In this document: one piece after another, positions 1,731 to 63,311 of the stretch
Layout: each line of letters begins with the position of its first letter
How positions within the stretch are numbered: the first letter of the stretch is position 1
Source of the DNA: Octopus vulgaris
Taxonomy: Eukaryota
Direction: 5' to 3'
Length of the DNA: 64,000 nucleotides
NCBI GenBank assembly: GCA_951406725.2
Contig: OX597816.1
Coordinates: 177,568,001-177,632,000 of the forward strand
Made by a program: the position numbers and the translations under genes
The notes under the pieces: generated by a model
Told to the model about the DNA's origin: nothing
Seen by the model: only the letters and a program-made list of their open reading frames with translations
The model's database searches: none

Positions 1731-2151
1731 AGCATTCTTGGGAATAAGATTATGGGAACTGAAAAAAAACCATCATTGAATCGGATTCCTAGGGGTTTAC
1801 TGCTGTTTGAGTTTCCAGTTCGAACCCCACCATAGCCTAGTTTTGCGAGGCGGGCTTAATCCGTCACCAAATCAAACACCACCACCTGATACTGGTTGAC
1901 TTTACGGAATTCATTTTCTGCTTTCTTTCTGTATAAATACTTGGACCAGGTTCCAGTTTGAAGATATTTACACCCTTTCCATGCCTCACACTCGGAGGCC
2001 TTGTAAAGAATCACACTTGTTTAGGCACAACTCTACTCTGATCGAACATACAACTTCAACGACATTTCAATTGTGACGACCCAGTCTTTTTTTCTGCTTC
2101 AGACATGCTGTAGACAGTAGCCCATGTAATACTCTTTCTTTGTAAGATTGC

Positions 2152-9713
<7,562 letters not shown>

Positions 9714-10208
9714 CGAGGACAGTGAATAGGAAAAAGAGATAGAAATGACATCAACGACTTGGAAATTGATGATGACAAGGAAGAAGATGCGGGCGAACAG
9801 GGTGGTGATTACAAAGGTAACGACGACGTTGTTATTTAACCCCAAATAAGCCCTGAACGAGTAGTCCAATGATTAAAGGCATTCTAGCCAGAACAAACAT
9901 CGTATTTTGAAGAATATGCAACTAATGCTTCTTACTTTTTTTTTTTCAGACGTTAAGAGATGCTTTGAAGATGTGGCTATTTTTTCTACCAGGTCTTACG
10001 ATTCTTAGCACAGCTTACAATTTGACTTTTTAAAAAATTTCTTTTTGTTTGTCCCTTTTGTTGTAACTCTCAACATACGAAATGGTGCCTTGAGGCCTGT
10101 TTATTTGTTAGTTGCTTACTGACATGTAGGGAGTGACTTCCAATAAAAAGGAAAGAGAACTTCGCGTGGCGACGCTGACGCACAATCGTTTGTACAATAG
10201 TGGCGACA

Positions 10209-12210: not shown

Positions 12211-14209
12211 TTATTTCATTACATTTGCCATGAAGGCAGTACATAGAGTAAAGTAGCTTTGCGGGCTGGACGAGGACATTAATGAAATGGATGATAATGA
12301 AAGAAAGATGATAAGGATGGGAGAAAACAAAAAACGCCCGCCGACTTCTGCTTCTCTAAAACATTGTTCTTTAAAACCAAACACAAAACAAGGTATTAAA
12401 CCTCTTACAACTTTTACAACTTTTCAATTTTTGGACTTAACAGTCCATTACAAACAACAACATAGTTCAATAATTACATATAATATAAATACAATACACA
12501 AAGCCCCTCCTCCCAGACCTGGCTTACACTTCCCTTAGGAATGCGCCAGCTCTAGGTCGGGGCCCCTCAAGTCGTATCTAAACATGTCCTATCAAACATA
12601 AAATATACATTATCACTTCTCCCTTTCTCCTCTTTCCGGACCTCCAGTCAAATATCCAGCCGCCTGCAGAGCAGATCACATTGACAGAAACAAAGCGAAG
12701 TGCCTATTATCAAATGTTTGTATCACACAGTGCCACAATTTATGACTCATCCTCAAAATAACTTGTGCCCGCATCCTCTGCCATCCTCCACGCCTCTTCC
12801 AAAACCACACCGAGTTCCGTGTTAGCGTTGCCTGGGAACAAGCGATATTCCTCATTGAGCTCCTCCAGCTCAAACGTCACGTCGAACGTCGTGGCCTCCA
12901 CAGCTATCTGCGGAGGCCATTCGGGGTCCTGTGTGAAGGCTGAAGGTGCTCCCTTATGGTGCTTTTCCATCACCTTTTCAATCTCTCCGCCTCTATGGAA
13001 GAAGATCAATACATCGTCTTTCCCCGGGGGCGGGATATTTAATTCTTTCATTGGCGGCACAGTTCCCGCCAACGGTGTTTCTTCTCCTGTCGGTGGATCA
13101 ACCCCAACCGACGTAGTTCCGGGACATTCCGGTACTATGTCACCGACTGCCGGCAATGTCCCGTTTCTCTTCCTCTTCCTCTTTTTTTTCTTTTCAACTG
13201 AGGGAGGGTGCGTCTCCTCCGTGGCCGGAAGATTCGCCTTTCCCTTCTCATCCCTAGGATCCTTTGGTGAGCACCCATTGTTGCTCACCTTCTTCCTCTT
13301 ACGGCCCACTAGGGTTTTATCCCGGGTGGTAGCCCGCAGATCCAAGCTTTCGTTAACCTCTTCCCATGATACGTGAGAAGAAATAAAATTTCCTTACCCT
13401 CCAGGGGTTGACTAGCAAATTTGCGAGCCTTTTCAGGGGTGTCAAATAGCAACCACACCGTTGCATATCTGACACCCCCGGAAATGAATTTAATTGTTGG
13501 CAAATACTCTGCCAACTCCTTTTCAATTGCCGTCTTTTCGAATAGGGCGATGGTGTCGAGTGCCTTGGAGTAGGTTTTCAACACCACCGTTTCTTTTTTT
13601 TTTTTAAATATATTCAAAATAAAACTTAAAAAGCGAGAAGAAAAAAGAAATCAAAAGATAGTCATAATAAACAAAAAGGAGCAAGTTAAATAAAGTTTAG
13701 CAGGAAGTCAATAGTTCAGGAACATAGCAAAAAAAAATCTTCCGGCCATTCGGTACTCCCGCCCTAGGTTGAATCCGGAACGCCACAACTGGAACACGAC
13801 TTCCACAAAAATTGATATACAAATTGTTCAATCTTCGGAGGTAAAACATTCCTCCAAATAGCAGTTCTCACAATTATTAAAGTTCTTCAAAAGGCACAAT
13901 ACAAGCAGTATTCTCATACTTAAGTGAGAAAAATATTCACTCAACATAAACCAAAGACGAATACGCCTCCAAACAAAAATTTTCACAATTCAGCGAGAAA
14001 AATTATTTGCTCGATGTCGGCAGAACCAGAATTCTGAATCCAGTAGGAATTCCTGCCTGTACAAAAACAATTCTCAACAAAAATTCTCACTGGACCCAAA
14101 ACACAGAATCTTACCTTACAATGGAGCTTCAAAATTTTTCAATTCGAGGCTTCAAAAGCATGTCTCATCTCTTTGGTGCCGAACACTACAATTATTCGCA
14201 CATGCGCAG
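12211..14209 (-). mobile_element. ORF1-only (HAL1-like) non-autonomous non-LTR retroelement, degenerate copy E
   Basis: Flanked by a ~15-bp target-site duplication GGAAGCAAGCTTCTT, with AATAAA at the 3' end. ORF 13309..13617 (ETVVLKTY...GGVRYATVWLLF...TYHGKRLTKAWICGLPP) aligns by eye with the ORF1s at 44-51 kb. ORF 12740..13345 has the basic KKKKRKRKR tract and EIEKVMEK C-terminal block. No RT or endonuclease is present. Confidence 0.75.
12740..13617 (-). pseudogene. Frameshifted, internally deleted ORF1 (gag-like) lacking the zinc knuckle
   Basis: Two ORF pieces match the N- and C-terminal blocks of the 44063 and 45745 proteins; the CCHC knuckle segment is absent. Confidence 0.65.
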
Positions 14210-14399
14210 TGGAAGCAAGCTTCTTATCACACACTCGCCCCTGTGCCTATATATATATATATATATATATATATTGTCAATACTATTTACCCGTGGTTCA
14301 AGCCAACAATGCCTTGAGGTTAATGGCTTAAAATAGATCACTTAGTTCTACAACAAACCACATTGACATACAATTTGATTTTCTGATGAAAGCTGGTCA

Positions 14400-17229: not shown

Positions 17230-18274
17230 ATAGACACACAAGAAACAAGCACAGAAAAAGCTAAGCGTATGAAAACCCGTGCCAAAACTGCGGCCTTAGA
17301 TATTCTGAATAATAAATGGCAAGAAAAACCTCTCTATGGCAAATACCCAAAGAGAGCGAATAATGCAGTTATCGACAAAGCCCTGACACATCAATGGCTA
17401 ATGGCCTCTGGCTTAAAATCTGAAACAGAGGGGTTTATCATAGCAGCTCAAGATCAATACCTACCAACAAGAAACTACCAGGCCAACATATTAAAGAACG
17501 GCAGTAGCCCAACATGTCGTGTATGCCGACAACAAAATGAAACCATTGATCATGTTGTCTCCAAATGCAGTCTTCTAGCGCCTACAGAGTACCTCAATAG
17601 GCATGATAGAGCTGCACAATATATTCACTGGGTAATTTGCAAAAACCTGGATTTGCCCCATGAAAAAAAACTGGTGGGAACACAATCCACCTCCTGTGCT
17701 TGAAAATGACCACATCTCACTCCTCTGGAACTTCACCATTCAAACTGACAGGAAGATAGATGCAAATAGGCCAGACATCATATTGAAAGACTTCAGGCAA
17801 AGAACATGCCTCCTCATTGATATGACTGTCCCAATCGATATAAACGTATCTGTCAAGACCTACCAGAAACTGAGCAAATATAAAGATCTTGAAATAGAAA
17901 TCAGCAAAATGTGGAAGCTGAAGACTAAAACAATACCTGTTGTCATAGGTGCCCTGGGAATGATAGCGAAAGGGACTGATTGCTATCTAACTCAGATACC
18001 AGGAAACCCCAAAATGGCAGAAATTCAAAAGATAGTGCTCATGGGAACTGCTCATATCCTACGCAAAAAGGTTTAAAACAAACTTTTTTTTATTTTACTT
18101 ATTTTTTTTTATTTTTTTTTTTTATGTATTAGACATTCACTAGTACAACACCAAAAAAACTCCCCAAAAAACCCTCCAAATATATGGCACAGAACTTCCA
18201 ACCTGTTGTCTCTTGAGGTTTCTGGGTGAGACTTGGAGCCAACTTGTACAAACATAAAGCAAAAGTCAAACATA

Positions 18275-22489: not shown

Positions 22490-24215
<1,726 letters not shown>

Positions 24216-38109: not shown

Positions 38110-38110
<1 letters not shown>

Positions 38111-39158
38111 CTCTATATAAAACTGAGAATGTGTGCCTGTCTGTCTGTCTGTCTGTGTGTTTCCCTAAAACTTGAGAACTACACAACCAATTTCATTCAA
38201 ATTTTACACATGCCTTACTTAGGGTCCATGTAGTTTCATGGGCAAAAAAAAATGTTCAACTTCTTGCCTAGAGCGAGCCCATAGCAATATCATATCTTCT
38301 CCACTATTTCAGTATTATGTGTTAAAAGTGAAAAAAAAGCATTTCTCTATTTTATGTCACATACTTTCACTTTAACAATAAAAATAATAACAACAATTGA
38401 ATTATATGTAGTAAGTAATAATTAAGATTAAACTAAAGTATATAATATAAGCGTAACATAACAAAAGTAAAAATAGCAATTGGTATAAAATTGCATCAAT
38501 GACTTGAACTTGAATAAGTGGTTTCCCATGAATGGGAATAAATTAAAAATAAAAATAAAATTAGCGTGCAGAAATAGAATAGTCCAGATGGATAATAAAA
38601 AATTAAATGAAAGAAAAGACTATTGTCTATAAAGTATACAATGTAGAGAAAAAAGATTTGAACACCTGGAGGAAAATACCATCGAAAAGTGTCTTGGTGC
38701 GACTATGAAAGATATCTAACCAGAGTCGGTAAATTCGCCACAATAGAAGCAAGGTTCGAGTCAACGGAGCATGCAAGGGAGTACTCGACTCGAACTTGCA
38801 AAGTGGAAATATTTTATTTTTACCTTTATATCTGGGACGTAGGACGTCCCGGATAAAAATTTAAAATATCCGCCCCCCACACAATAGCAGTAGAGGTAGG
38901 CTGGATTGTAGCCACACTTCTATACACGAGGGAGGACAAGATACAATTGATCGAAATTGCAAGAGACGGGCTTACAATTCCAGTCTGTTATATATTTTGA
39001 GTATTGTTATCACTAGCGATATCAAGATATAACTTTGTATTTTGTATTTTATGTGTAGATGTATATATAGAGATGTACATGTATATGTACACATATATAT
39101 ATACACATATATACATGCACTAGCACTATGACCCGGCAACGACGGGTCATAATGCTAG
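38110..39158 (+). mobile_element. Non-autonomous Helitron carrying a captured ORF1 fragment (empty copy)
   Basis: A|TC 5' end (TCTCTATATAAAACTGAG followed by (CTGT)n), subterminal hairpin ATGACCCG-gcaacga-CGGGTCAT, 3' end CTAG|T, no TSD. Confidence 0.85.
38611..38975 (+). pseudogene. Captured fragment of a Tx1/L1-type ORF1
   Basis: Reads KTIVYKVYNVEKK...TIEKCLG...RVGKFATIEARFE...VEVGWIVATLL...EDKI, aligning with RTIVYRV...RGSKYGTVVVHF...VEAEWIVAAVI...EDEV of ORF 45745..47163. Confidence 0.7.
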
Positions 39159-39268
39159 TATATATATATATATATATATATATATAACAATTGCAGCATG
39201 GAAGGTGTTTATAAGTCATTTCAGAAACACACAAAAACCGTTAGATTCACTTCAACATTTAAATTTAA

Positions 39269-39319
39269 TTTGTCAAAATATTTTCGTCGCTTTGAGTCCG
39301 CGACCTGTTCACTGACAAA
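39269..39319 (-). ncRNA. Hammerhead-like motif with G3-C8 swapped core
   Basis: Minus strand: tttgtca-GTGAACA-g-gtcgc...gcgac-GAA-AATATT-T-tgacaaa. Confidence 0.5.
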
Positions 39320-40094
39320 ATTCTGTGCTGCATCTTATTTATATATATATATATATATATATATGATATTTACCACGTGAGCTGCGAGGAAAAGAATATG
39401 TAAAAGATATGGTATATGATTTTTTTTTTGTGCAAGGGTTCCTTGAGACATGTAATTTATTTTAAGGGTTATGTAAGGGTAAAATGGTTGAGAAATATTG
39501 GTCTATGGCATAGATGCTATAGAGGAGATGGTCACTCTGCATTTCATAAGGGTGGGTGGGGGTAACTGAGAAGAAAATAAAGAGGGTAGTGAAAGAGTAC
39601 CAGAGTAAACTGTCCAGAAGCAAGGAAGTGAGCACAAGAGAGGACATGGTCAGTGAATGAGGAGGGTAAAGGAGAAGGGTATGTGGTTATAAGAATGTGA
39701 GGGGAGGAGTAACAGGTGGTTAGAGGTGGGGTAGAGATGAATGTAGTGAGTGATGAAACGGGTGGAGGTGTAGCATGATGGGAGATATCAATATGGGTGA
39801 GGGTGGGTGGTTAAGGCGTGAGAGAGAAAGAGGTTACATAGGGATGAGAGGTCAGGAAGTAGGGAAAGATGACCAAGGCTTAGGGAGAGTGGAGCAAATG
39901 TAGAGGGAGATAAGGGTGGCTACAGTGAGTGTGGCACAGCAACAGGTATAAGAGGTATTAAGATGGGGTACGGCGGAGGAGGAGAGGAGATGAGTGGAGG
40001 CTGAGAAAGGAAGTAATCAGTGAAAATAGTGTGAAAGGGGATGAGGATGAGAATGAGGGATGGAAGTTGTGCGTGGGGGGCGGAGGCAGTAATT

Positions 40095-40290
40095 GGTGGC
40101 ACAAAAGAAATTTTTTTTGTGGGTGGGGGTCGTCGTTGTCATCGCCCCCAATGCGTAACTGGTACTTATTTAATCAACTTCAAAAGGATAAAAAGCAAAG
40201 TCGACCTCGGTGGAATTTGAACTCAGAAGATGGTCAAAATACTCGCAAAGCATTTTGCCTGGCACGCTAACGCTTCTGCCAGCTTGCCAT
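40095..40290 (-). mobile_element. SINE family B
   Basis: Homologous to the 18345-19360 copies. Confidence 0.7.
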
Positions 40291-40562
40291 CTTACCTCAG
40301 CATAATGATAACAAATCAGAATATCTCTGGAGAACATCTACAGTTATTTTGAAACTTATAAGATAACTGGAAGTTAATAGAGGACCCATGAAATATATAC
40401 TGTATTGCCTGTGTACAAGGCACACCTTTTGTTTACTTTTAAATATATCAAAATATTGTTAGGTATCAGACGTGGCCCTGTTATGGATGAGAGACCGACT
40501 GTTGTAGGGCTGGAGCATAAGATGAGCAGAAGTTTGCTGAGTATAATAATTATTACTAATAC

Positions 40563-40977
40563 TCTCTTTTACTTGTTTCAGTCATTTGATTGCGGCCATG
40601 CTGGAGCACCGCCTTATTCTTTGGTGCTCCAAGGACTTATTTGGTGCTTCAAGGACTTATTCTTTGGAAGCCTAGTACTTATTCTATCGGATTCTTTCGC
40701 TGAACCACTAAGTTACGGGGACATAAACACACCACCATCGGTTGTCAAGTGATGTTAGGGGGACAAAGAGACACAAACATACACACACATACATATATAT
40801 ATATACATATATACAACAGGCTTCTTTCAGTTTCCAACTACCAAATCCACTCTCAAGGCTTTGGTCGGCCCGAGGCTACAGTAGAAGACACTTGCTCAAG
40901 GTGCCAAGCAGTGGGAATGAACCCGGAACCATGTGGTGTGTAAGCAAGCTACTTACCACACAGCCACTTCTGTACCT
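40563..40977 (-). mobile_element. SINE family A, full length
   Basis: Reverse complement of 10290-10735. Confidence 0.82.
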
Positions 40978-40986
40978 AATAATTTC

Positions 40987-41824
40987 CTGACTGGCTGGCC
41001 CTGTTTTGGATGCCTGGCTGGCCCGGCCTTGGCTTGCTGGCTGGAATCTGGCCTAGGCTGGCTGCCTGGCCGGAAGTTGGCTGCCTGGCTTGCCCGGCCT
41101 TGGTTTGCTGGCTTGAAATTGGCCTAGTCTGGCTGGCTGGGCGGTCCTTGGTTGCCTGGCTGGCTCGGTCTTAACTTGCTGGCTGGAAACTGGCCTAGCC
41201 TGGCTGGCTGGCCCGCCCTTCGCTTGCTGGCTGGAAACCGGCCTAGGCTGCCTGGCTGGCCCGTCCTTGGTTTGCTGGCTGGAAACTGGCCTAGCCTGGC
41301 TGGCTGGCCCGCCCTTCGCTTGCTGGCTGGAAACCGGCCTAGGCTGCCTGGCTGGCCCGTCCTTGGTTTGCTGGCTGGAAACTGGCCTAGCCTGGCTAGG
41401 CCTTGGCTGCCTGGCTAGGCCTTGGCTGCCTGGCTTGCACGGCCTTGGTTTGCTGGCTGTCCGGGCCTTGGTTGCCTGGCTGGCCCGGATTTGGCTTGCT
41501 GGCTTGAAATTGGCCTAGTCTGGCTGGCTGGGCAGTCCTTGGTTGCCTGGCTGGCCGGGCCTTGGTTGCCTGGCTGACCCGGCCTTGACTTGCTGGCTGG
41601 AAACTGGCCTAGGCTGGCTGGTTGGCTGGCCGGGCCATGGTTGCCTGGCTGACCTGGCCTTGACTTGCTGGCTGGAAACTGGCCTAGGCTGGCTGGCTGG
41701 CTGGCCGGGCCTTGGTTGCCTGGCTGACCCGGCCTTGACTTGCTGGCTGGAAATTGGCCTAGGCTGGCTGGCTGGCCGGGCCAGCCAGGCATCAATGGTA
41801 CGGCCAGCCAGCTAGCCTAGGCTG
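40987..41824. repeat. GC-rich minisatellite (CTGG-based; ~38-bp subunit, ~75-bp higher-order unit)
   Basis: TTGCTGGCTGGAAACTGGCCTAGGCTGGCTGGC...CCTTGG is repeated; the translated ORF 41152..41418 repeats every 25 aa. Confidence 0.85.
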
Positions 41825-41899
41825 TAAAATAGAAATGTGACTTACGCAATTCTGTGTCTTACATGCTAGAAAATATAGTGTAAAAGGGAGGTATGTGAA

Positions 41900-41946
<47 letters not shown>

Positions 41947-42241
41947 AATGGAAGTGAACATGAAAAGGAAAATCAAACAGCGTTTCAGCTCTGTGTGTGT
42001 ATGTGTACAAGGGGAGTACGTAAATGTATGTGTGAACCAGCATTCTTTCAGTAACAAATAATGATCAATGTCACATCTCAAAAGACAACCACCAGATAAC
42101 ATTGACAAGTGTATTAATTTGATTTACCATCCATAGTTATATAAAAAGTACTACAATTAGCCGTCATTTTTGATGGCACGGGGCCAGCTAGTATGCATGT
42201 AATTATTGCAAATGTATTAAAAATATATGTGTGTGTGTATG

Positions 42242-42277
<36 letters not shown>

Positions 42278-42279
<2 letters not shown>

Positions 42280-42388
42280 TTGTGGAATGTCTTGTTGGCG
42301 AAGAATGTGTTAGTGATGCACAGGTTATGGTATGTACAAAATTCAAGTAGTCTCTGACCATTATCATTCATGTTGCCAATACCAAAAC
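42278..42388 (-). pseudogene. RTE-like LINE apurinic endonuclease fragment
   Basis: FGIGNMNDNGQRLLEFCTYHNLCITNTFFANKTFHK is a typical RTE-clade endonuclease segment. Confidence 0.7.
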
Positions 42389-42474
42389 ACATACACTTAC
42401 ATATATATATATACATATATATACGATTGATTTGTTTCAGTTCCTGTCTACGAAATCCACATATATATATGTAT

Positions 42475-42510
<36 letters not shown>

Positions 42511-42599
42511 AAACACACACACACACACATAGATAAATTGATAGATACAACTGAGTGGGCAAACAAAAATATGAGACACTGCGTAGTGCTTTTTTTATA

Positions 42600-42885
42600 T
42601 TTTGATAAGCCTGGTACTTATTCTATCAGTTTCTTCTTGTGAAACCAGTAAGCTATGGGGATGTAAATAAACGAACACCAGTTGTGAAGCAGTGATGAGG
42701 GAGAAACACAAAAACACATACATAGATTTACATATATACATACATATACATATAACTGAATTCTTTCAGTTTCTGTCTACAAAATCCACTAACAAGGCTT
42801 TGGTTGGTCTGGGGCTATAGCAGAAGACATGCCAAGTGACCACAGTTTTGGAACCGAGTTAGTTACCACACAGCCACACCTGCAC
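42600..42885 (-). mobile_element. SINE family A, degenerate
   Basis: Homologous to the other family A copies. Confidence 0.65.
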
Positions 42886-43093
42886 TTATGTATGTGTGTG
42901 GGGGGGTGTATGTGTGTATGGGTGTATATATGTATGCATGTATATATGTGCAAACATATGTGTACATATTACATGTACATCTATATAAATATACATCTAG
43001 ACATACATGTATACACATACATGTATATCTATAGAAATACATTTATACAGCTATACATATACATGTATACATATACAGCTATATATATGCATG

Positions 43094-43125
<32 letters not shown>

Positions 43126-43152
43126 TACATTCATATATATACCTGTATATGC

Positions 43153-43195
<43 letters not shown>

Positions 43196-43916
43196 CATAT
43201 ACATACATTAGAGAGATGTTTTTGTTTCACTTTTAACACGTAATACTGAAATAGTGGAGAAGATAAGATATTGCTGTGGGCTCGCCCTATACTAGTATTA
43301 AAGACCCGTCGTTGCCGGGTCATAGTGCTTGTGCATGTATATATGTGTATATATATGTGTACATATTACATGTACATCTATAACTTTTTTTTTCTTTTAC
43401 TTGTTTCAGTCATTTGACTGTGGCCATGCTGGAGCACCGCCTTTAGTCGAGCAACTCGACCCTGGGACTTATTCTTTTGTAAGCCCAGTACTTATTCTAT
43501 CGGTCTCTTTTGCCGAGCCGCTACATCAACACATAAAATACAAAATACAAAGTTATATCTTGATATCGCTAGTGATAACAATACTCAAAATATATAACAG
43601 ACTGGAATTGTTAGCCCGTCTCTTGTAATTTCGATCAATTATATCTTGTCCTCCCTCTTGTATAGAAGTGTGGCTACAATCCAGCCTACCTCTACTTCGG
43701 GGGGGGGGGGCATTTTAAATTTTTCTCCAGGACGTCCTAAGTCCCAGATATAAAGGTAAAAATAAAATATTTCCACTTTGCAAGTTCGAGTCGAGTACTC
43801 CCTTGCACGCTCCGTTAACTCGAACCTTGCTTCTATTGTGGCGAATTTACCGACTCTGATTAAATATCTTTCATAGTCGCACCAAGACACTTTTCGAAGG
43901 TGCTTTCCTCCATGTT

Positions 43917-45591
43917 ATTTCTTTATTACCCACCAGGGGCTACGAAGAATGGCGGACATAACAAAACATGGGGGACATAGAACAATATGATTAAATTCAT
44001 GAGCAAATGAAAATGAAAAAATGATAATATGAAAGCGATGCTAACGGCCCCCTCCGCCAGCATCACTTACCTGTCCTTTTGTTTTCACTGTCACCTGAAT
44101 GTTCATTCCCAATACGAAGACCATCCATATCCATTCTTACTCCGAAACTGTCCTCCATATATTCCACGAATTCATCGCTCATTCTTGTATCTTTCACCTC
44201 CCAATTCTCCCTTTCACACCTCAACACAAACTCATCTATATTCTTCTTTTCCAGCACTGCATATCTGGTCCCATCCATTTCATACCATTCATACTCCTCC
44301 ATTACCCTTTCAACCTCTTTCTGTTCAGTCACAATATAAATGTTCGGCCTGGGTTCGTTTTCAAACTCTTGTCTGTCTGTATTATTATTTTTCTTTTGTT
44401 TTCTTGTTGGAGGGGAGCGGGTGGGTTCACTGTCTGCGGGGGAAGGGTGGGATTCAGAGGGTGCGGGTGGTGTTGGGGTGGGTTGGGGCTTCGCACAGTT
44501 TTTCTTTTTCTTTCTTTTTCTCTTTTTTCTTCCTTCTTCCCACTCTTGTTGCATCTCCTCTTCTTCTGTCGTTTCTTTTTCCCTTTGATTCTCTTTGGTT
44601 TCTTCCTCTTTTGGGGCTTCCGCGACGATTTCCTTTTCTTTTTCCTTTGGTGGGGGAGGGCAGTAGGCTCTTATGTGACCCCTCAGGCCACACTTGTAGC
44701 ACCTGGGCGCCCTACCCTCCACCCACACTCTCATAATAATATTTCCAGTTTTTATACTGTCCGTAAGCTTTTCTATAACTTCCGCCTCCGTCTGTATGTT
44801 CATTACTAGTGTGGCACCTCTCACGCCTTCATATTTCATAATGGCGTGGAGGATGTCCACTTTATCTTCATTTCCTTTGATAACCGCAGCCGTTATTAAT
44901 TCGCCCTCTAGGTGTGGAGGTATTCCTTCCACCCTAATTCTGGTGGTCCTTCTATTCAAATACGAAGGGAACAAGTAAAACTTTTCTGTACTCACCACCT
45001 TGGCTGCTATATTCCTGGCTGCTTTCTCCCTTTTAAATTGTACCGTTATGGTTCCATATTCTAATCCTTTTGTCATGTACACAATTTCTTCTCCTGTCTG
45101 TTTGAAAGCCTCTTCAATTGCTTCCATGTTAATCACTTCCATTTTTCTACCTCCATTCATAAATACTTTATATTTAATGGTTCTACGATAGAACCAGTCT
45201 CCGCGCCCTGCTAGAGGCAACAGCTCAACCTCTCCGTTCTCCCCCTCCTTCATGAACTCCTGGAAGTCCGTCAACTTAGCCAGGTCTATCTCTTTTTCTG
45301 TTGACTTCTTCGTTATACCTGCGTAGGTGCTTTCCATTTTTTTCACCGCCAACTCCTTCTCAGATGTCGACGAATTTTCAGAGAAATTTCTCCCTTCCAT
45401 CTCATCCGTTTGGTAGAGGCGGCTCATAGTCGCCTCAGACCGAAAAACGGCCTCCCGAACAGAAAACGTGCGACGCACAGAACCAGTGCGACGCGAAACC
45501 GCACCAACCGACGTTCCAATTCCGCAACCACAATTCACTTTTTGTTCTTTTTTCTTTTTTAACCGAATTTTACTGAGCGCAAAAAAACGCG
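43917..45591 (-). mobile_element. ORF1-only (HAL1-like) retroelement A
   Basis: 5' end CGCGTTTTTTT, a single ORF, ~150-bp 3' UTR ending TGTCC...CTTCGTAGCCCC.GGTGGGTAATAAA, no ORF2. Confidence 0.8.
44063..45427 (-). CDS. Intact ORF1/gag-like protein (~454 aa from MSRLYQ) with CCHC zinc knuckle
   Basis: RVWVEGRAPRCYKCGLRGHIRAYC (CX2CX4HX4C), an upstream RRM-like region typical of Tx1/L1 ORF1, and a basic NLS-like tract. Confidence 0.8.
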   Translation of the reverse strand: MSRLYQTDEMEGRNFSENSSTSEKELAVKKMESTYAGITKKSTEKEIDLAKLTDFQEFMKEGENGEVELLPLAGRGDWFYRRTIKYKVFMNGGRKMEVINMEAIEEAFKQTGEEIVYMTKGLEYGTITVQFKREKAARNIAAKVVSTEKFYLFPSYLNRRTTRIRVEGIPPHLEGELITAAVIKGNEDKVDILHAIMKYEGVRGATLVMNIQTEAEVIEKLTDSIKTGNIIMRVWVEGRAPRCYKCGLRGHIRAYCPPPPKEKEKEIVAEAPKEEETKENQREKETTEEEEMQQEWEEGRKKRKRKKKKNCAKPQPTPTPPAPSESHPSPADSEPTRSPPTRKQKKNNNTDRQEFENEPRPNIYIVTEQKEVERVMEEYEWYEMDGTRYAVLEKKNIDEFVLRCERENWEVKDTRMSDEFVEYMEDSFGVRMDMDGLRIGNEHSGDSENKRTGK

Positions 45592-47342
45592 TATTTCTTT
45601 ATTACCCACTAAGGGGCTACGAAGAATGGCGGACATAACAAAACATGGGGACATAGAACATTATAATTAAACTATATGAACATGAAGTGTTAAACGAAAA
45701 AAATGATAAAATGAAAGCGATACCAACGGCCCCGTCCGTCAGCATCACTTACCTGTCCTTTGTTTTTCATAGTCACTTGAATGTTCTTTGCCAATACGAA
45801 TAAATTCCATATCCATTCTTACTCCGAAATACTCATTCATATTTTCCACGAATTCATCGCTCATTCTTATATCTTTCACCTCCCAATTCTCCCTTTCACA
45901 CCTCCCCATAAACTCACCTATGTTCTTTTTTTCAATCACAGCATACCTAGTCTCTCCAACATCATACCGTTTATACTCTTCCATTAGACTTTTAACTTTC
46001 CTCTGTTCAGTCATAGTACAAATGTACGGCCTGGGTTCGATTTCAATCTCTTGTGTGTGTGTATTCTTTTTTTTCTTTTGTTTTCTTGTTGGGGGGGAGC
46101 GGGTGGGTTCAATGTCTGCATGGATAGGGTGGGACTCAGAGGGTGTGGGAGGTTTTGGGGTAGATTGGAGTTCCATATTATTTTCTTTTTTTCCACATAT
46201 TCTTCTCTTCCTCTTACTTCCAGCTTCCTTCCATTTCTGTGTATTCTCTTCCTCTGTTTCCTTCTCCTCTGGTTTCTGCTTCTCTCTCTCTGGTTCGGGA
46301 TCCATTTCTTTCCCTGGGGGAGGGCAGAAGGCTCTTATGTGACCCCTCAGGCCACACTTGTAACAACGTGGAGCCCTGCCCTCCACCCACACTCTCATGA
46401 TCACTTCTCCCAGTCTGATGCTTTCCGTCAGGTCCACCAGTACCTCGGTCTCTGCCTGTACGTTCAGCTCCACTGTTACGCCTCTCCAGCCCTCAGACTT
46501 AACCGAGGCATGGAGAATATCCACTTCGTCCTCGTGGCCGCTGATCACAGCCGCCACAATCCATTCTGCCTCCACGTTTGGTGGCACTCCCTCCACCCTT
46601 ATTCGTGTAATCCTCCTGTTTAAATACGTAGGTAACAGTGTTACCTTTTCCGACTTCACCGCCTTCGCTGCCATCTTCCTCGCTGCAGATTCACTTTTAA
46701 AGTGCACAACTACGGTCCCGTACTTGGATCCTCGAGTCAGAAAATTTATTTCCTCCTCAGTTCTTCGCAGGGCTTCCTCTATCCATTCCATGGATACAAC
46801 TTCTACCCTCTTCCTTTCGTTTGCGCACACCCTGTAAACAATGGTCCTCTTGTCATACCATTCTTTTCTCCTGGGTGTCGGTGATAGTTCCACCTCACCG
46901 CTTTCCTTTTTCATGTATTTCTGGTAACTTGGCAACTTGGCCATGTCGACCCCTTTCTCTTCCGCCTTCTTGGTTACACCGGCATAGGTATAACCCAGCT
47001 TCTCTTCCAATTCCCTTGCTGCCATTTCTAGCTCCTTCTCAGACGTAGGCAAGTCTGATAAAGACTCGAAAACTCCAGCCTTTTCTTCCATCAGCTTCAT
47101 TGCAATTGCCTGTTCCAGTTCCTCATCTGTCGTGGACAAGTCTGTTAGAGACTCAGAATCCATTTCCCTCTGTCTGACAGACCGAAAACGGCCGCCAAAA
47201 CAGAAAAAGTGTAACGCGCTGAACGAGTGAAACGCGAAACCGCGTCAACGCCGTTCAGAATTTCCACAACAACAACAACGCTTTTTGTTCTTTTTTTACC
47301 GAATTTTACGAGCGTAAAAAACACGGAGCCGAAAAAACGCGA
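45592..47342 (-). mobile_element. ORF1-only (HAL1-like) retroelement B
   Basis: Same termini as A, with a near-identical 3' tail, directly abutting the 5' end of A. Confidence 0.8.
45745..47163 (-). CDS. Intact ORF1/gag-like protein, 472 aa, with CCHC zinc knuckle
   Basis: ATG start; RCYKCGLRGHIRAFC; clear but diverged paralog of the 44063 protein. Confidence 0.82.
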   Translation of the reverse strand: MDSESLTDLSTTDEELEQAIAMKLMEEKAGVFESLSDLPTSEKELEMAARELEEKLGYTYAGVTKKAEEKGVDMAKLPSYQKYMKKESGEVELSPTPRRKEWYDKRTIVYRVCANERKRVEVVSMEWIEEALRRTEEEINFLTRGSKYGTVVVHFKSESAARKMAAKAVKSEKVTLLPTYLNRRITRIRVEGVPPNVEAEWIVAAVISGHEDEVDILHASVKSEGWRGVTVELNVQAETEVLVDLTESIRLGEVIMRVWVEGRAPRCYKCGLRGHIRAFCPPPGKEMDPEPEREKQKPEEKETEEENTQKWKEAGSKRKRRICGKKENNMELQSTPKPPTPSESHPIHADIEPTRSPPTRKQKKKKNTHTQEIEIEPRPYICTMTEQRKVKSLMEEYKRYDVGETRYAVIEKKNIGEFMGRCERENWEVKDIRMSDEFVENMNEYFGVRMDMEFIRIGKEHSSDYEKQRTGK

Positions 47343-49125
47343 TTTTTTTATTACCCACAAGGGGCCACGAAGAGGGGGACATTACAAGACGGGACATGGG
47401 GTACATAAAGTAAAAATAAAATATGAAGTAAAAGATGAATTTATATGTAATGAGATGGAACGGCTTACGAACCCCCAACTCGCAGTTCCGTTTAAAATAC
47501 AATTATACATTTCATATATTCCAGTTCAAAATACAATTTTACAGTTACATATATTCCAGTTCACAGTACAATAATTTTACAATTTTACATGTTAACATTA
47601 CATATATTCCTGTTCAAAAACACAACTTTACATCAAATAATTTTACAAGTAACAATTCTAATTCTTTTACATTAGACACTCGTCCGTCATATAATCCAAT
47701 AGGTCCGTTTGATCTATTACATCTGGTAATTTATCATACCGTACATAATGCATTATATGCATAGCATGATATATCTTTTTTAATTTTGTGTATGTCTCCT
47801 TTTACATCTTCACCATACAGTTTTGGGTTCACCTTCACCCTGACCAACCCTTTCTTACCTACAAGTCTCTTTTCCACTTCTGTATTCTTGATATACATCA
47901 CAACTGCCTTCAAGTTTTTTCCTGTAGGCCTTCTTCCATATTTACACGATTCCAATTGTTCGTTCACTCTTGTCTCCCATTCTTGTTCAAACTCTGTCCT
48001 TGGTCGCTCTCTCACCTTTTCTTTTACTTCCTGTTCTTTTTCTCTTCTCTCTCTTCTGCTATCTTGCTTTTGATTTTTTTCTTTTTTATATCTTTCGGTG
48101 GTGATTCCACCCTTGATCTCTTCTTGTCTTCTGTTTTTTCCTCTTCTGCACTTGCTCGTTCTTCCTCATTTAACTGCTCCTCCATTTGTGTTTCCTCCGC
48201 TTTCGCTTCCTCCACACACGCTTCTTTACACTCCTCTATCACAACCTCTGGTGCTTTTGTTTTTTCTCGCGGGCACACATCCTTCATGTGGCCCCTCGAT
48301 TTACAGTTATAGCAAATTGGGGGTCTTCCCTCTACCACAACTCGGAGCCGTGTTTCGTCAGGGTAGACCAACTCCTCCGGGATGTTGTACAGGTCTCGCA
48401 CGGTTATGTGTGCCAGAACCTGCACCGTATATCCCCACCACTTCACCTCTGCTGACTTCTCCACCTTCAGTACCTCCACATCATCCTTGCAGTTAAACAG
48501 CACTGCTGCCAGCAACCTTTCCATATTAAATTCGGGTGAGATTCTATTGATTCTCATCCTCACTGCTCTCCTTCCGCAGTAACTTGGTAGCAAAGTCCAC
48601 TTATCCGATTTCAAAATTCTTGTAGCGTTCTTTTTTGCCTCCTCTTCTGTTTTAAAATACACCACTACCGTGGCATACTTCCTTCCTCTTTTAAAAAATG
48701 CTGGTTCACCCTCAATTTCCTTCAGACACCTTTCCACTTCTTCCATTTCCGCTACTTCAATCTTCTTCGACTCCACGCACCACGTCCTGTACGTTATAGT
48801 ACGCTTCTCTGCACTGCTTTCCTCCTCCTCGGACGGTGTGACTATCACACAGTCACCCTCCCTCTTTAAACTGTCGAAATACTTCTGTAAAGTCTTCTGT
48901 TCGACCATCACCTCCTCCATTTCCAGTTCACCGGCAACCAGGCCTCTGCCTGCCGCTCGCGCGTAAGTCTGCTCTTGCATTTTCAAGAAAAAATTATTCC
49001 ACGTCCTCCAACGAACTCGAACTCACAACCTCTTTACTCGAAATAAACACACCAGAATAAACACACCAGAATAACTCCAACTAACTAACTCAAAAAAAAC
49101 ACGGGAGCCGAAAAAAACGCGACCG
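47343..49125 (-). mobile_element. ORF1-only retroelement C (second subfamily)
   Basis: 5' end CGGTCGCGTTTTTTTCGGCTCCCGTG; 3' end ATGTCCCCCTCTTCGTGGCCCCTTGTGGGTAATAAA. Confidence 0.8.
47734..48980 (-). pseudogene. ORF1/gag-like with CCHC knuckle, frameshifted
   Basis: ORFs 48024..48986 (RVVVEGRPPICYNCKSRGHMKDVC) and 47734..48015; ~20-bp deletion relative to copy D. Confidence 0.75.
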
Positions 49126-49155
49126 TTTTTCCTCTACATTGTATACTTTATAGAC

Positions 49156-51005
49156 TGTTTTTTTATTACCCACAAGGGGCGACGAAGAGGGGGACATTAC
49201 AAGGCAGGACATGGGGTACATAAAATAAAATAAAATATGAAGTAAAAATGAATTTTATGTAATGAGATGGAACGGCTTACGAACCCCCAACTCGCAGTTC
49301 CGTTTAAAATACAATTATACATTTCATATATTCCAATACAATTTTACAGTTACAATAATTTTACAATTTTACATTTCATATATTCTAGTTCAAAATACAG
49401 TTTTTCCAGTTACATATATTCAGTTCAAAGTACAATAATTTTACAATTTACATGTTAACATTACATATATTCTTGTTCAAAATACAACTTTACATCATAC
49501 AATTTACAATTAACAATTCTAATTCTTTTTCTTTTACGTTAGACGCTCGTCCGTCATATAATCCAATAGATCCATTTGATCTATTACATCTGGTAATTTA
49601 TCATACCGTACATAATGCACTATGTGCATAGCATTATATATCTTTTTTAATTTTATGTATGTCTCTTTGTCTATAATGACGCCTTTTACATCTTCACCAT
49701 ACAGTTTTGGGTTCACCTTCACCCTGACCAACCCTTTCTTACCTACCAGTCTCTTTTCCACTTCTGTATTCTTGATATACATCACAACTGCCTTCAAGTT
49801 TTTTCCTGTAGGTCTTCTTCCATATTTACACGATTCCAATTGTTCGTTCACTCTTTTCTCCCATTTTTGTTCAAACTCTGTCCTTGGCCACTCTCTCTCC
49901 TTCTCTTTTACTTCCTGTCCTTTGTATGTTTTCTCTTCTGCTATCTTACTTTTGATTTTTTCTTTTTTAGATCTTTCGGTGGTGATTCCACCCTTGATCT
50001 CTTTCTATCTTCTGTTTTTTCCTCTTCTACACTTGCTCGTTCTTCCTCATTTAACTGCTCCTCCATTCGTGTTTCCTCCGCTTTCGCTTCCTCCACACAC
50101 GCATCTTTACACTCCTCTATCACAACCTCTGGTGCTTTTGTTTTTTCTCGAGGGCACACATCCTTCATGTGGCCCCTCGATTTACAATTATAGCAAATTG
50201 GGGGTCTTCCCTCTACCACAACTCGGAGCCGAGTCTCGTCAGGGTAGACCAACTCCTCCGGGATGTTGTACAGGTCCCTCACGGTTATGTGTGCCAGAAC
50301 CTGCACCGTATATCCCCACCACTTCACCTCTGCTGACTTCTCCACCTTCAGTACTTCCACATCATCCTTGCAGTTAAACAGCACTGCTGCCAGCAACCTT
50401 TCCATATTAAATTCGGGTGAGATTCTATTGATTCTCATCCTCACTGCTCTCCTTCCACAGTAACTTGGTAACAAAGTCCACTTATCCGACTTCAAAATTC
50501 TTGTTGCATTCTTTTTTGCCTCATCTTCTGTTTCAAAATATACCACAACCGTGGCATATTTCTTTCCTCTTTGAAAAATGTGGGTTCACCCTCAATTTCC
50601 TTCAGACACTTTTCTACTTCTTCTATTTCCGCTACTTCAATTTTCTTCGACTCCACGCACCACGTCCTGTACGTTATAGTACGCTTCTCTGCACTGCTTT
50701 CCTCCTCCTCGGACGGTGTGACTCTTACGCAGTCACCCTCCCTCTTTAAACTGTCGAAATACTTCTGTAAAGTCTTCTGTTCGACCATCACCTCCTCCAT
50801 TTCCAGTTCACCGGCAACCAGGCCTCTGCCTGCCGCTCGCGCGTAAGTCTGCTCTTGCATTTTCAAGAAAAAATTATTCCACGTCCTCCAACGAACTCGA
50901 ACTCACAACCTCTTTACTCGAAATAAACACACCAGAATAAACACACCAGAATAACTCCAACTAACTAACTCAAAAAAAACACGGGAGCCGAAAAAAACGC
51001 GACCG
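49156..51005 (-). mobile_element. ORF1-only retroelement D (close relative of C), flanked by a 30-bp duplication
   Basis: TTTTTCCTCTACATTGTATACTTTATAGAC occurs at 49126-49155 and 51006-51035. Confidence 0.8.
49534..50860 (-). pseudogene. ORF1/gag-like, broken into three ORFs
   Basis: ORFs 50492..50866, 49941..50546 and 49534..49851 together reconstruct the copy C protein. Confidence 0.75.
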
Positions 51006-51543
51006 TTTTTCCTCTACATTGTATACTTTATAGACAATAGTCTTTTCTTTAATTTCATTTTTTATTATCCATCTGGACTATTCCATTTCTGCACGCTAAT
51101 TTTATTTTTATTTTTAATTTATTCCCATTCATGGGAAACCACTTATTCAAGTTCAAGTCATTGATGCAATTCTATACCAATTGCTATTTTTACTTTTTTT
51201 ATGTTACGATTATATTATACTTTAGTTTGATTTTAATTATTACTTACTACATATAATTCAATTGTTACTATTTTTTTATTGTTAAAGTGAAAGTATCTGA
51301 CATAAAATAGAGAAATGTTTTTGTTTCACTTTTATCACGTTATACTGGAATAGTGGGGAAGATATGATATTGCTGTGGGCTCGCCCTAGGCAAAAAGTTA
51401 AACATTTTTTTTGCCGATGACACTCCCCGGACCCTAAGTAAGGCATGTGTAAAACTTGAATGAAATTGGTTGTGTAGTTCTCAAGTTTTAGAGAAACACA
51501 CAGACAGACAGACAGACAGACATTCTCAGTTTTATATATATAT

Positions 51544-51589
<46 letters not shown>

Positions 51590-52224: not shown

Positions 52225-52810
52225 GGCGCATGGCTCAGTGGTTAGAGCGTCGAGCTTACGATCGTGAGGTTGTGAGCTCGAATCCCGGACCGGGCTGCGT
52301 GTTGTGTTCTTGAGCAAGACACTTTATTTCACGTTGCTCCAGTTCGCTCAGCTGTAGAAATGTAGAATGCTCAAGGTGCCAAGCAGTGGGAATGAACCCG
52401 GAACCATGTGGTTGGTAAGCAAGTTACTTACCACACAGCCACTCCTGCACCTAATAATTTCCTGACTGGCTGGTCCTGTTTTGGATGCCTGGCTGGCCCG
52501 GCCTTGGCTTGCTGGCTGGAATCTGGCCTAGGCTGGCTGCCTGGCCGGAAGTTGGGCTGCGTGTTGTGTTCTTGAGCAAGACACTTTATTTCACGTTGCT
52601 CCAGTTCGCTCAGCTGTAGAAATGAGTTGCGACGTCACAGGTGCCAAGCTGTATCGACCTTTGTCTTTCCCTTGGATAACACTGGTGGCGTGGAGAGGGG
52701 AGGCTGGTATGCATGGGAGACTGCTGGTCTTCCATAAAAACAACCTCGCCCGGACTTGTGTCTCGGAGGGTAACTCTCTAGGTGCAAACCCATGGTCACT
52801 CATGGTCACC
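52225..52810 (+). mobile_element. tRNA-derived SINE family C with an internal templated insertion
   Basis: GGCGCATGGCTCAGTGGTTAG A box and GAGCTCGAATCCC B box; related to 57805-58005. Confidence 0.8.
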
Positions 52811-60748: not shown

Positions 60749-63311
60749 TCATTTGTACGATTTCTCTATAAGTGTGTTTACAAGGGGAATCTTAGAGAAG
60801 AGAATATGGAAGAGTTCAGAGTTGCAAATGTTACAAAATCTCCTGCCCTTATCAAAAGGAAAGGATACAGACAGTATGAACCAATCTAACTTAAAATCTA
60901 TATTATTGTCTTTAAGACGCCAAACTAATTTACTTAGCCCTGTACTATGTCGTTTTTTACTATCCCTGAATGTTGAATAATGGTTTGAAATCCTCTTGGA
61001 TAACTGGGAAGTGGACACTCCTATATAGAAGAAGACATCGGTACCGGAAGAAATTCTATACTGGTAAATAGAATTCTTAGTCTTAGAATTACTAAACAAA
61101 AATTTAATTCTGTTGGGATTGTCCTCCGAGATCGAAACGAAGTTTTTATTGCTATGATTGTTGTTACTATTATTATTAGCACTACCAACAACACTATTCC
61201 TATTATTATTATTAGTATTATTAATGGTAATACAACCAATAATACCATCAACAATAATACCGTTATTGTTATTACCATTAACATTACCATTGTTATTAAC
61301 ACGACTATTACTATTATTATTATTATTATTATCATTGTTAACACTATCACTACTACCATTGCTATTACTATTAATACTATTCCTATTATTATGAATGTAT
61401 GATGGGTTGGAATTAGCAAGATTAATGCTGGAACTCCCGGGTGAAGAACCTTTATTTAGCAGCTTAGTTTTGTGAGAAGATATAATTTGTGAAAGATTTC
61501 TAGTGTTAGAGAAAGCGATTCAAACTATGTGGGAATTGATAATAGAATAATATCTAGAATGTTGGGGAAAGTTCCTAGCAACGGCTTCACGGAACTGCAA
61601 GGGAAGGTTCGATTTAATTTGTTTACCGAAAGGTATTACGACCCAGATACAGTTTTTAGTGACCTTTAAATTGTACGTAGTGTTATTTGTAAAAAGTAAG
61701 GAGAAAATTTCTGGGTTGGAAATTTGGGGTTGAATGGCGCTTACCTCCCCTGGTCTGTAAAGAATTTATATTGTGTATAAGGCTGCTTGCACTATTAGAA
61801 TTAAAATCACTATTCCTATTACAAGTAACTATTTTATCTGGCGAAGCAGATGTTGGTTTAGAATGAGCTGAATTGATGTATGACACTTTCTCTCTATAGT
61901 CGGCTTTTAACAAGGCGGCGTTATAGAAGTCTGCCTTTTGGTTAAAAATGTCAACATTGGCAGATAATTTAGACAGTCTCAGAGATATGTTTTTGAATAA
62001 GTTATCGGTAACTGGCCTAGCATGATTACTGTAAAGGCTAATATACTTAAGATTTGTGAAAGGTTTATGATAAGGGAAGTATGAGTTATTCTGTAAATTG
62101 AGGGTAATGTATAAGAAGTTGGCTTTAGTTAACTCATCGTCAAAAACGATGCGCAAGCCCATTCTACTAAAAACCTAACTAATCTGTTCTTAACCTTCTG
62201 TATTTTTTGGTTTGAAATGTTTTGGAGGTAAAGCAGAGAATCGTCACGATAAAGACCTCCTGCGCGTAAGATGTCCGGGAATTGGTCGACCAATTCATAA
62301 AGAATATATATTCCGACCAAATCGGCTATCTGGGCGCTGTTTGTACTTCCCATTAGTACATCAAACGCATTAGGAGTATCTCTGCGGACCCACAACTTGC
62401 TATCGAACTGGATGAATGATTTCCTATCAGTCAATATTACATTAATTTTTCCCCAGAGAGGCCTGCCTTACTGTGTGCGTGTCATAGGGCCTTATTAAGT
62501 ATAATAGGGTTGATTGAAGAATAGAAACTAGATATATCGAATTGGATAAATTTAGTGTTGGCCTTATCAGTAATAGAAGTAAACCAATCTACGACTTGAG
62601 CAGAATTGGACCATAAGCTAAGTTTTAATTTATTAATTAATATAGGGATATACTTATCTAATATGTATTTGCTAAGAGTACCGATGTCTGAGCTGGAAGG
62701 GCATATAAGCCGCAATGCTGGGTTAGCATAAAAGTTCTGCTTGTGGTCTTTTTAAATAAACCTGGGATGCCTGGGGTTCAATGGTTCTGTCTTCATCTGT
62801 AATCCATAAGTTTCCATAATCCATTTAGCTTCCAAGTTGGCCTGCCTGAGAGTATTCCTACTGGTGGTTTTGTAATTTTTATGGATCTCCTTTTCGAGCA
62901 GTTCCAAATAGTGGCTTTTGGTAAGCTTATAGAGGTTTCCGGTTTTATCCGATTGAACTAGGATGTAATCTAAGTTATTGATTTCTCTAGAGACGTTATT
63001 AAGGTATCTGAGGTGCTTATTCCTGAGGGGTGATCGATGAAATTTAATATTCTTTACGATGGCCCAAAGATCATCTTCGAATTTCTTCAATCTAGGATTA
63101 GGTGGAGGCGTAGCCTTCGATTTAAATAGTTTTTATATTCATTAGAGATGTCGTTACTGGTCTCTTTTAGGTCCTTATTGTTGTGGAAGAAGGCGAGCCA
63201 TCTGATGCGGATGATAAATACATTAGTCTTGTTAATGAGTTCCTTAAGGAAAGCTTTTTTCGGTGGAATAGGAATATCCTTAAGGGAGGCGTTAATATTG
63301 AACAACTCCAT
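60749..63311 (-). pseudogene. PLE RT + GIY-YIG polyprotein with multiple frameshifts
   Basis: ORFs 63087..63311, 62752..63090, 62482..62715, 62129..62434, 61683..62162 and 60749..61099 lie in collinear domain order. Confidence 0.85.

Follow-up and report, generated by a model that had tools for sequence, protein, structure and literature searches.

How do four retroelements that encode only an ORF1 protein come to stand in a row inside one copy of a Helitron when a second, inverted copy of the same rolling-circle transposon is empty? This question is raised by a window of repeat-rich animal DNA from Octopus vulgaris (the whole 64-kb stretch analysed here; assembly GCA_951406725.2, contig OX597816.1, forward-strand positions 177,568,001 to 177,632,000), in which we confirmed the anatomy of two Helitron copies (A and B) and of an array of four ORF1-only elements (U1 to U4) within copy B. 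With confidence only slightly better than even, we favour a scenario in which the first unit landed by chance in an ORF1 (open reading frame 1) fragment carried by the Helitron, and the array then grew by insertion of further units at or beside the 5′ heads of those already resident. What we say on targeting concerns a single locus, a solo relative found within the same window, and gene models viewed apart from their genomic context.

An empty and a filled copy of one Helitron

The two copies lie tail to tail. Copy A (38110..39158, + strand, 1,049 bp) is empty and non-autonomous, begins with TC, has a (CTGT)n run near its 5′ end and terminates in CTAG behind a hairpin (39130-39148). Copy B, which spans 51546 to 43292 on the - strand, is divided into a 5′ part that reaches as far as the insertion point (51006..51546), 94.2% identical to A, and a 3′ part (43292..43915) comprising the remainder of the ORF1 piece, a short interspersed nuclear element (SINE), a hairpin (43321-43303) and the CTAG end; past the array, identity to A is 94.7% (both values over non-gap columns of the alignment). 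The array occupies 51005-43916 (7,090 bp), and together with B forms a composite of 8,255 bp. The alignment, at about 94% identity, bears out the original prediction of two inverted copies of one Helitron, A continuous and B holding an array of about 7.1 kb; that prediction contained neither the SINE in B, nor the 30-bp Helitron copy between U1 and U2, nor the nested head duplications described below. B was struck twice, separately: by the array and by the SINE-like dispersed repeat (43394..43523, + strand), which is absent from A and has several more copies in the window. Fragment capture, of which the ORF1 piece would be an example, is typical of Helitrons.

Helitrons are described as having a 5′ TC, a 3′ CTRR, a 16-20-nt palindrome about 11 bp from the end and an A|T target (PMC4067079). 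In both copies the 5′ TC is preceded by A and the 3′ CTAG followed by T (CTAG|T), and a 19-nt hairpin ends 10-11 nt from the 3′ end. Both thus show an apparent A|T position, but with TA/TG microsatellites as the 5′ flanks and the 3′ flank of A, and no pre-insertion site was seen. In termini and palindrome the pair resembles canonical non-autonomous Helitrons, and in its A|T position it may do so; it differs from them in that the captured piece is a retroelement ORF1 and in that one copy has been swollen eightfold by nested insertions. Neither copy encodes a transposase. The earlier claim that the Helitron ends are intact holds for the termini and the core hairpin but not for the outer hairpin stem of B, which has decayed (fold z of -6.6 in A and -1.8 in B). 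The 8,255-bp composite might in principle be mobile.

Directly after the CTAG of B lies a third Helitron relic without ends (43289-43201 and about 43000-42930, - strand), composed of an 88-bp 5′-internal piece (about 90% identical to A and B), a microsatellite and a 3′-subterminal-like stretch. No ORF1 piece separates these parts, and the relic may represent a pre-capture or a deleted form.

Four ORF1-only elements

All four units are encoded on the - strand. U1 (49156..51005, 1,850 bp) has a frameshifted ORF, and its first 276 bp are identical to those of U2 (47343..49125, 1,783 bp), the two being about 96% identical overall; the U2 ORF is open for 318 aa and then frameshifted. U3 (45592..47342, 1,751 bp) and U4 (43916..45591, 1,676 bp), the latter the presumed first arrival, have intact ORFs of 472 aa (47163-45745) and 454 aa, respectively, whose products are 61% identical. 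The U2 protein is far more distant, with 34% identity to that of U3 (range for the U2/U3 pair, 34-42%). From the stop region to the tail the units have 148-405 nt, with a longest frame of 42-53 aa, too short for an ORF2, and no reverse transcriptase (RT) or endonuclease Pfam match was found in U2-U4. They share a tail of about 65 bp ending in AATAAA plus a few A, the end being A-rich in all four. The fold of this 3′ tail is not significant (z -0.15 to -1.3), and Rfam yielded only microsatellite-driven matches below gathering scores, none of them within the array (45501-45569 lay outside the scan).

The U3 ORF is predicted to encode two RRM-like domains, one CCHC knuckle, a low-complexity linker and a C-terminal domain of about 95 aa. 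A structural model of the ORF1 core (pLDDT 92.9) shows the two RRM-like domains and the knuckle. The top Foldseek matches of the model are tandem-RRM proteins (E 8e-5, TM 0.26-0.36), its first domain aligns with the La RRM (Z 8.4, root-mean-square deviation 2.6, 79 aligned residues) and its second is ferredoxin-like (Z 7.9); zf-CCHC was detected in 18 of 26 family members at E<=1. On this model, the ORF1 of the units is of type I, with RRMs followed by a CCHC knuckle, a class treated in PMC4120745 and PMC5203782. Type I ORF1 is also described from the I, Jockey, R1, L2 and CR1 clades (PMC4120745), so the clade of the partner is not fixed by this assignment. Transposase_22 had no match in U2-U4, nor for the 26 family members among the 25 of 27 families listed, and HAL1 (half-L1) proper was rejected as an identity for the units on that ground. 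A sequence search of the PDB returned zinc knuckles only, apart from one chance row, and the atlas neighbours, clusters of zf-CCHC and ZCCHC3-like proteins (0.90-0.92) and of PRE_C2HC (0.85), are leads that assign no clade. Comparison of U1 with U2 across codons 44-298 gave 23 changes that are synonymous and 12 that are not (dN/dS 0.14, Fisher p 6e-9), indicating that ORF1 is kept under purifying selection. Such synonymous-biased divergence implies that the two units derive from two selected source lineages rather than from a decaying local duplication.

The nearest protein matches are O. vulgaris gene models (79-99% identity across matched parts), with further relatives in O. bimaculoides, O. 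sinensis, Argonauta and contigs from the European Nucleotide Archive (ENA) and Logan; the CCHC repeat protein P0007 was excluded from the comparisons. Three observations concern the coding regions themselves. The 3′ thirds of U3 and U4 (45745-46120 and 44063-44437) are 85% identical and their RRM regions 71%, a contrast that suggests module exchange between families. The C-terminal domain of about 95 aa (46030-45745 and 49850-49560, both - strand) has no Pfam name. Finally, a strong splice donor lies in the coding end of U3, and many gene predictions of O. vulgaris, P0003 among them, have this exon fused to them; annotation turns ORF1-only elements into spurious gene models and host-gene fusions.

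Junctions and proposed growth of the array

The sequence of A runs continuously across the insertion site (38655..38663, + strand), of which 7-9 bp are absent from B. The 12-bp target loss implied by the original prediction was too large, since B retains ACATGG on the right side; at this outer junction there is a loss of 7-9 bp and no duplication. The internal junctions are of another kind. Between U1 and U2 stands an exact 30-bp copy (49126..49155, - strand) of the Helitron-B sequence from just upstream of the array, including the variant base proper to B. With the next 276 bp it makes up an exact 306-bp repeat (51035-50730 and 49155-48850). Beyond these 276 bp, U1 and U2 differ by 4.6%, and at that rate the identity of all 306 bp has a p of about 5e-7. 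The identical 306 bp include bases of Helitron B, so the addition of one or more units took place here.

U2 and U3, as well as U3 and U4, are joined tail to head with no foreign bases. U2 is flanked by a duplication whose left copy (49094..49122, - strand, 29 bp) and right copy (47316..47342, - strand, 27 bp), the latter being the head of U3, are identical at 27 of 27 aligned bases with two 1-nt homopolymer gaps (score 44, against a maximum of 29 in 500 shuffles). The similarity ends after it, and the 5′ untranslated regions of U2 and U3 have nothing in common beyond the head. Nested in the right copy is 47341-47332, the left copy of a shorter duplication of 10-11 bp around U3, which thus precedes the head proper of U3; its right copy, to which the U3 tail is joined, is the head motif of U4, CGCG plus a T-tract (45581..45591, - strand). 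This motif occurs twice in the head of U3 and once in that of U4. The sequence CGCGTTTTTT is found four times in the 64 kb, always at unit heads, and the tails of both U2 and U3 adjoin the CGCG-T-tract motif (two matches, against none in 100 shuffles). Heads of U2 and U3 are nearly exact copies despite their distant proteins, whereas those of U3 and U4, which are closer kin, are only 73-78% alike in the head region, a pattern that fits duplication at insertion better than conservation. Helitron sequence that resembles the 3′ tail of the units (GGATAATAAAAAA) is found upstream of the U1 junction, at a distance of about 20-35 bp (about 51070-51056, - strand; about 38588-38603 in A), probably by chance.

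The nested duplications would imply the order of arrival U4, U3, U2, U1, with relatives inserting at heads, presumably moved by the enzyme of a LINE (long interspersed nuclear element), and the array growing leftward from the original head of U4 as its left edge. U4 would have come first, with an atypical loss of 7-9 bp of target. U3 would have followed at the CGCG-T-tract head of U4, duplicating 10-11 bp, and U2 one base further left, duplicating 27-29 bp. U1 would have been the last to arrive: Helitron DNA may have been nicked 30 bp upstream, and the complementary DNA (cDNA) end then joined through annealing to the homologous U2, which would account for the duplicated 306 bp. Each newcomer would have come to lie downstream of a head copy that might, speculatively, serve it as promoter or initiator. 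Growth by insertion at the 5′ end of a resident element is known from R1 tandems (PMC2718515, section 11; PMC5932611), and self-targeting at the 5′ heads of the elements appears likely here from the junction sequences.

Gene models from elsewhere suggest same-strand clustering independent of this Helitron. Among 18 fetched proteins with a U3-type C-terminus, five contain two or three same-strand copies and two run on into another ORF1 family (clearly in P0048, weakly in P0004); the contigs of those checked measure 41-226 Mb. P0006 and P0171, whose contigs differ in length, agree in their two-copy arrangement and in their spacer peptide, and the O. bimaculoides model P0113 has two ORF1 starts. 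Neither a metagenome profile scan nor a search for the junction pattern returned related loci. A search of sequencing runs listed 20 matching runs in 8 studies, none of RNA among those listed, and we do not count these as evidence.

Several results weigh against growth at heads. The four 3′ junctions have no consensus: only two of the tails are followed by the head motif, U4 and U1 having gone into Helitron sequence unrelated to it. The duplication lengths that it supposes are heterogeneous (none, 10-11, 27-29 and 30/306 bp), and the duplication of 10-11 bp, a short T-tract motif, could simply be a shared family head. A deletion accompanied by a spacer of upstream target ending at the breakpoint is also the signature of integration with a carried target of the R1A type. 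Furthermore, the multi-copy gene models are ab initio splices, which do not establish that the copies are adjacent, 11 of the 18 U3-type models are single-copy, and no autonomous partner was found in protein and metagenome scans.

Alternative histories of the array

The strongest competitor, which we nonetheless regard as unlikely, is that U2, U3 and U4 arrived as a pre-built block, joined in a single event of template jumping that linked full-length RNAs, or copied as one read-through transcript of an array situated elsewhere, and that only U1 was added locally, the similar heads being conserved 5′ ends of the family. The clean U2/U3 and U3/U4 joins, the apparently full length of all units, the single deletion at the outer junction and the common arrangement and spacer peptide of P0006 and P0171 would all suit such an arrival. 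For SINEU elements, both template jumping and additions at the 5′ end have been considered (PMC4494074, section 17). What the block does not explain is why a near-exact head is shared by the distant U2 and U3 and not by the closer U3 and U4, nor why the motif is doubled in U3 and single in U4, unless nesting occurred at the source locus, which would itself require head targeting.

Somewhat less probable still is targeting of the Helitron itself in the manner of R1A, by a partner endonuclease that prefers this Helitron site. Transcripts would start in upstream Helitron DNA, annealing of the cDNA would cause the loss of 7-9 bp, and the 30-bp spacer would be a carried 5′ extension. The spacer does end exactly at the breakpoint, and U4 and U1 were inserted within about 40 bp of Helitron DNA. 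Melanogaster-type R1 is described with a precise 9-bp deletion and upstream duplications of 16-27 nt ending at the breakpoint (PMC2718515, section 11), and Tx1 families are described as targeting non-autonomous DNA transposons, with tandems that sandwich target sequence (PMC4494074). However, Helitron sequence is held by only one of the three internal junctions, two lacking it, so that the fixed spacer of external target seen in R1 does not occur here. The variant base of B in the spacer and the 276 bp of U1/U2 identity point instead to local copying. Copy A is empty, and none of the 18 U3-type gene models matched the Helitron at E<0.1, a weak comparison given that the captured piece is frameshifted.

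We consider it very improbable that the U1/U2 pair goes back to local tandem duplication, with conversion by a copy elsewhere in the genome, or to an assembly in which two haplotypes were wrongly joined, everything else being chance nesting in a repeat-rich region. Recombination or long-read consensus typically produces such features as an exact 306-bp repeat and homopolymer indels, and the junctions were read from the assembly sequence. Yet the joint between the U1 tail and the Helitron is new and would not be made by haplotype switching, the U1/U2 divergence is biased towards synonymous changes, and the heads of U2, U3 and U4 would be left unexplained.

The captured ORF1 piece

The piece of ORF1 in copy A (38564..38980, + strand) is a decayed type-I sequence covering the first RRM and the start of the second, with at least four frame breaks. 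The ORF1 homology of about 38611-38975, on which the original prediction depended, was supported by a search with a profile made from 23 relatives, window sequences excluded: the piece was recovered in three frames, with scores of 26.5, 23.7 and 9.6 bits (4.8 bits for the best of 200 shuffles), and reached 86 bits over profile positions 52-168 when read through with X at four breaks picked by eye. In amino acids, its product shares 58% identity with P0154 and 49% with P0101, but only 27-33% with U2-U4. A quick tree (123 columns; 78 rows that cover the core) places it with P0154 and P0101 at SH-aLRT 99. It therefore belongs to a subfamily other than that of the array units; the Helitron does carry an ORF1 fragment later hit by relatives, as had been proposed, but these are relatives at the level of the superfamily and not members of the same family. 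At the DNA level, 15-65 of 100 shuffles scored as well as the real sequence in seven of eight comparisons of the piece with U1-U4 (that with U4 covering 43916-45500 only), the eighth being an AT-rich 20-mer in the 3′ untranslated region (1 of 100 shuffles as good).

Accordingly, attraction of the array to the ORF1 relic by sequence homology or by a target motif in ORF1-coding DNA is hardly credible: although the array does sit within an ORF1-derived stretch, the piece belongs to another subfamily without DNA similarity above shuffles, it fills 40% of the length of the Helitron, ORF1 relics are common and the junctions are formed by element ends, not ORF1 interiors. The ORF1 superfamily is indeed abundant (798 cluster representatives at E<=0.001, and another copy at 13.3-13.6 kb of the window), and the homologous coding stretch within U1-U4 was never hit by insertion. 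Because of the different subfamily, the lack of DNA similarity and the fraction of the Helitron that the piece occupies, a hit in it needs no targeting. The landing was thus likely a matter of chance and the coincidence of Helitron and ORF1 incidental and, in itself, of little importance. Homology-guided integration, as originally suggested, finds no support in these data, and self-targeting survives in another form, as a likely process at the 5′ heads of the elements and not at the ORF1 piece.

A probable partner enzyme

Returning to growth at heads by a borrowed enzyme, the latter was probably that of a Tx1/L1-type LINE. Thirteen recently active L1-Tx1 families are listed for O. vulgaris in Table 1 of PMC13282606. 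A weak search of 7,999 candidate proteins, 924-2,635 aa long, yielded no ORF1-ORF2 fusion, and no RT family was among the families shown for 35 ORF1 matches. An endonuclease-like piece was present in P0004 only; judged by eye, we take it to be a spliced-in RTE-type fragment.

Seven proteins (P0064, P0067, P0069, P0089, P0106, P0120 and P0138) form a separate, well-supported ORF1 clade, from ENA contigs where checked, and no fused ORF2 was found in those proteins of this clade that were seen. The genomic context of the clade might reveal an autonomous partner.

A solo relative and other features of the window

A control is provided by a solo ORF1-only element of another subfamily (12213..14210, - strand, 1,998 bp). 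It is internally deleted and frameshifted, 70% identical in amino acids to P0108 in the core, and flanked by a target duplication of about 15 bp (14225-14211 and 12211-12196). Its A-rich end and this duplication would fit movement of the target-primed reverse transcription type in the ORF1 superfamily. It lies within the head of a SINE-like repeat, which its subfamily may prefer.

The remainder of the window contains various other repeats. A GC-rich degenerate satellite of (CTGG)n-like units occupies 40980-41822, between the Helitrons; one of its ends (41757-41822) is inverted, and part of it recurs as a second copy at 52.4 kb (52450-52550). A trinucleotide run of about 7.6 kb (about 2100-9750, TTA/TAA-type) gives rise to a spurious ORF of 2,550 aa. 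Relics of transposable elements include the 3′ part of a zf-RVT-bearing LINE (17269-18076, + strand), a mariner-type transposase piece (22817-23293, + strand) and a piece that we presume to be Penelope-like (61683-62162, - strand), with no Pfam support.

Comparison with known systems

Close parallels are found in the Tx1 clade, where Tx1L in Tx1D of Xenopus, and Tx1-Mar LINEs and SINEU elements in Mariner-N4_AMi, are described as nested in DNA transposons (Kojima 2015, PMC4494074). As there, non-LTR (long terminal repeat) elements and their dependants reside in a non-autonomous DNA transposon and form tandems of mixed families, here probably likewise by sequential insertion, sandwiching the target. 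The target described for those systems is a DNA transposon and was shown over hundreds of copies, whereas the repeated target at our locus appears to be the head of the retroelements themselves. In contrast with SINEU elements as described there, our units encode ORF1, have no small nuclear RNA head according to Rfam and are hosted by a Helitron. Compared with the sequence-specific targeting of the Tx1 clade, two of four tails adjoin the head motif, at a single locus.

R1 arrays in Drosophila 28S genes are similarly described as growing at the resident 5′ end, and R1A insertion sites as having lost 9 bp of target and gained a duplicate of upstream target sequence (PMC2718515). R1 in that account is autonomous and has a single host target and a spacer that does not vary, whereas here spacers differ and three families with 34-61% amino acid identity are mixed. 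HAL1 is likewise described as a non-autonomous LINE derivative encoding only ORF1p (PMC5753468), derived from mammalian L1 and with a type II ORF1; the present elements would have a type I ORF1 (RRMs and CCHC) and occur in cephalopods. In the text consulted on HAL1 we found no mention of arrays arranged head to tail.

Among telomeric elements, HeT-A encodes only a Gag-like ORF, and HeT-A and TART form telomeric arrays. These arrays, as well as the Zepp-like clusters described in PMC9940879, resemble ours in being made of head-to-tail or clustered non-LTR elements; ours differs in being interstitial, inside a Helitron and accompanied by flanking duplications, with no sign of a chromosome end or centromere. 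In the literature covered, which did not extend to subscription journals and Repbase reports, we found nothing on cephalopod ORF1-only arrays or on element heads as targets.

The cephalopod ORF1-only group to which these elements belong is diverse and devoid of RT (the 798 representatives mentioned above, with taxa checked for 30 proteins only). A bolder extension, which we put forward tentatively and think somewhat less likely to be right than wrong, is that octopuses harbour a wide radiation of ORF1-only elements using a borrowed endonuclease aimed at a shared 5′ head motif, with mixed arrays genome-wide, takeover of the duplicated promoter and an 8-kb cargo carried by a Helitron. If head targeting held genome-wide, it would combine a safe haven with promoter capture, at a target supplied neither by host genes nor by DNA transposons but by the parasites. 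Arrays of mixed families would then be explained as well, and a defined motif would be available for finding and testing a new site-preferring LINE endonuclease. The ingredients have precedent in HAL1, in Tx1/SINEU tandems and in R1 tandems; for their combination in this array, head targeting is a testable hypothesis.

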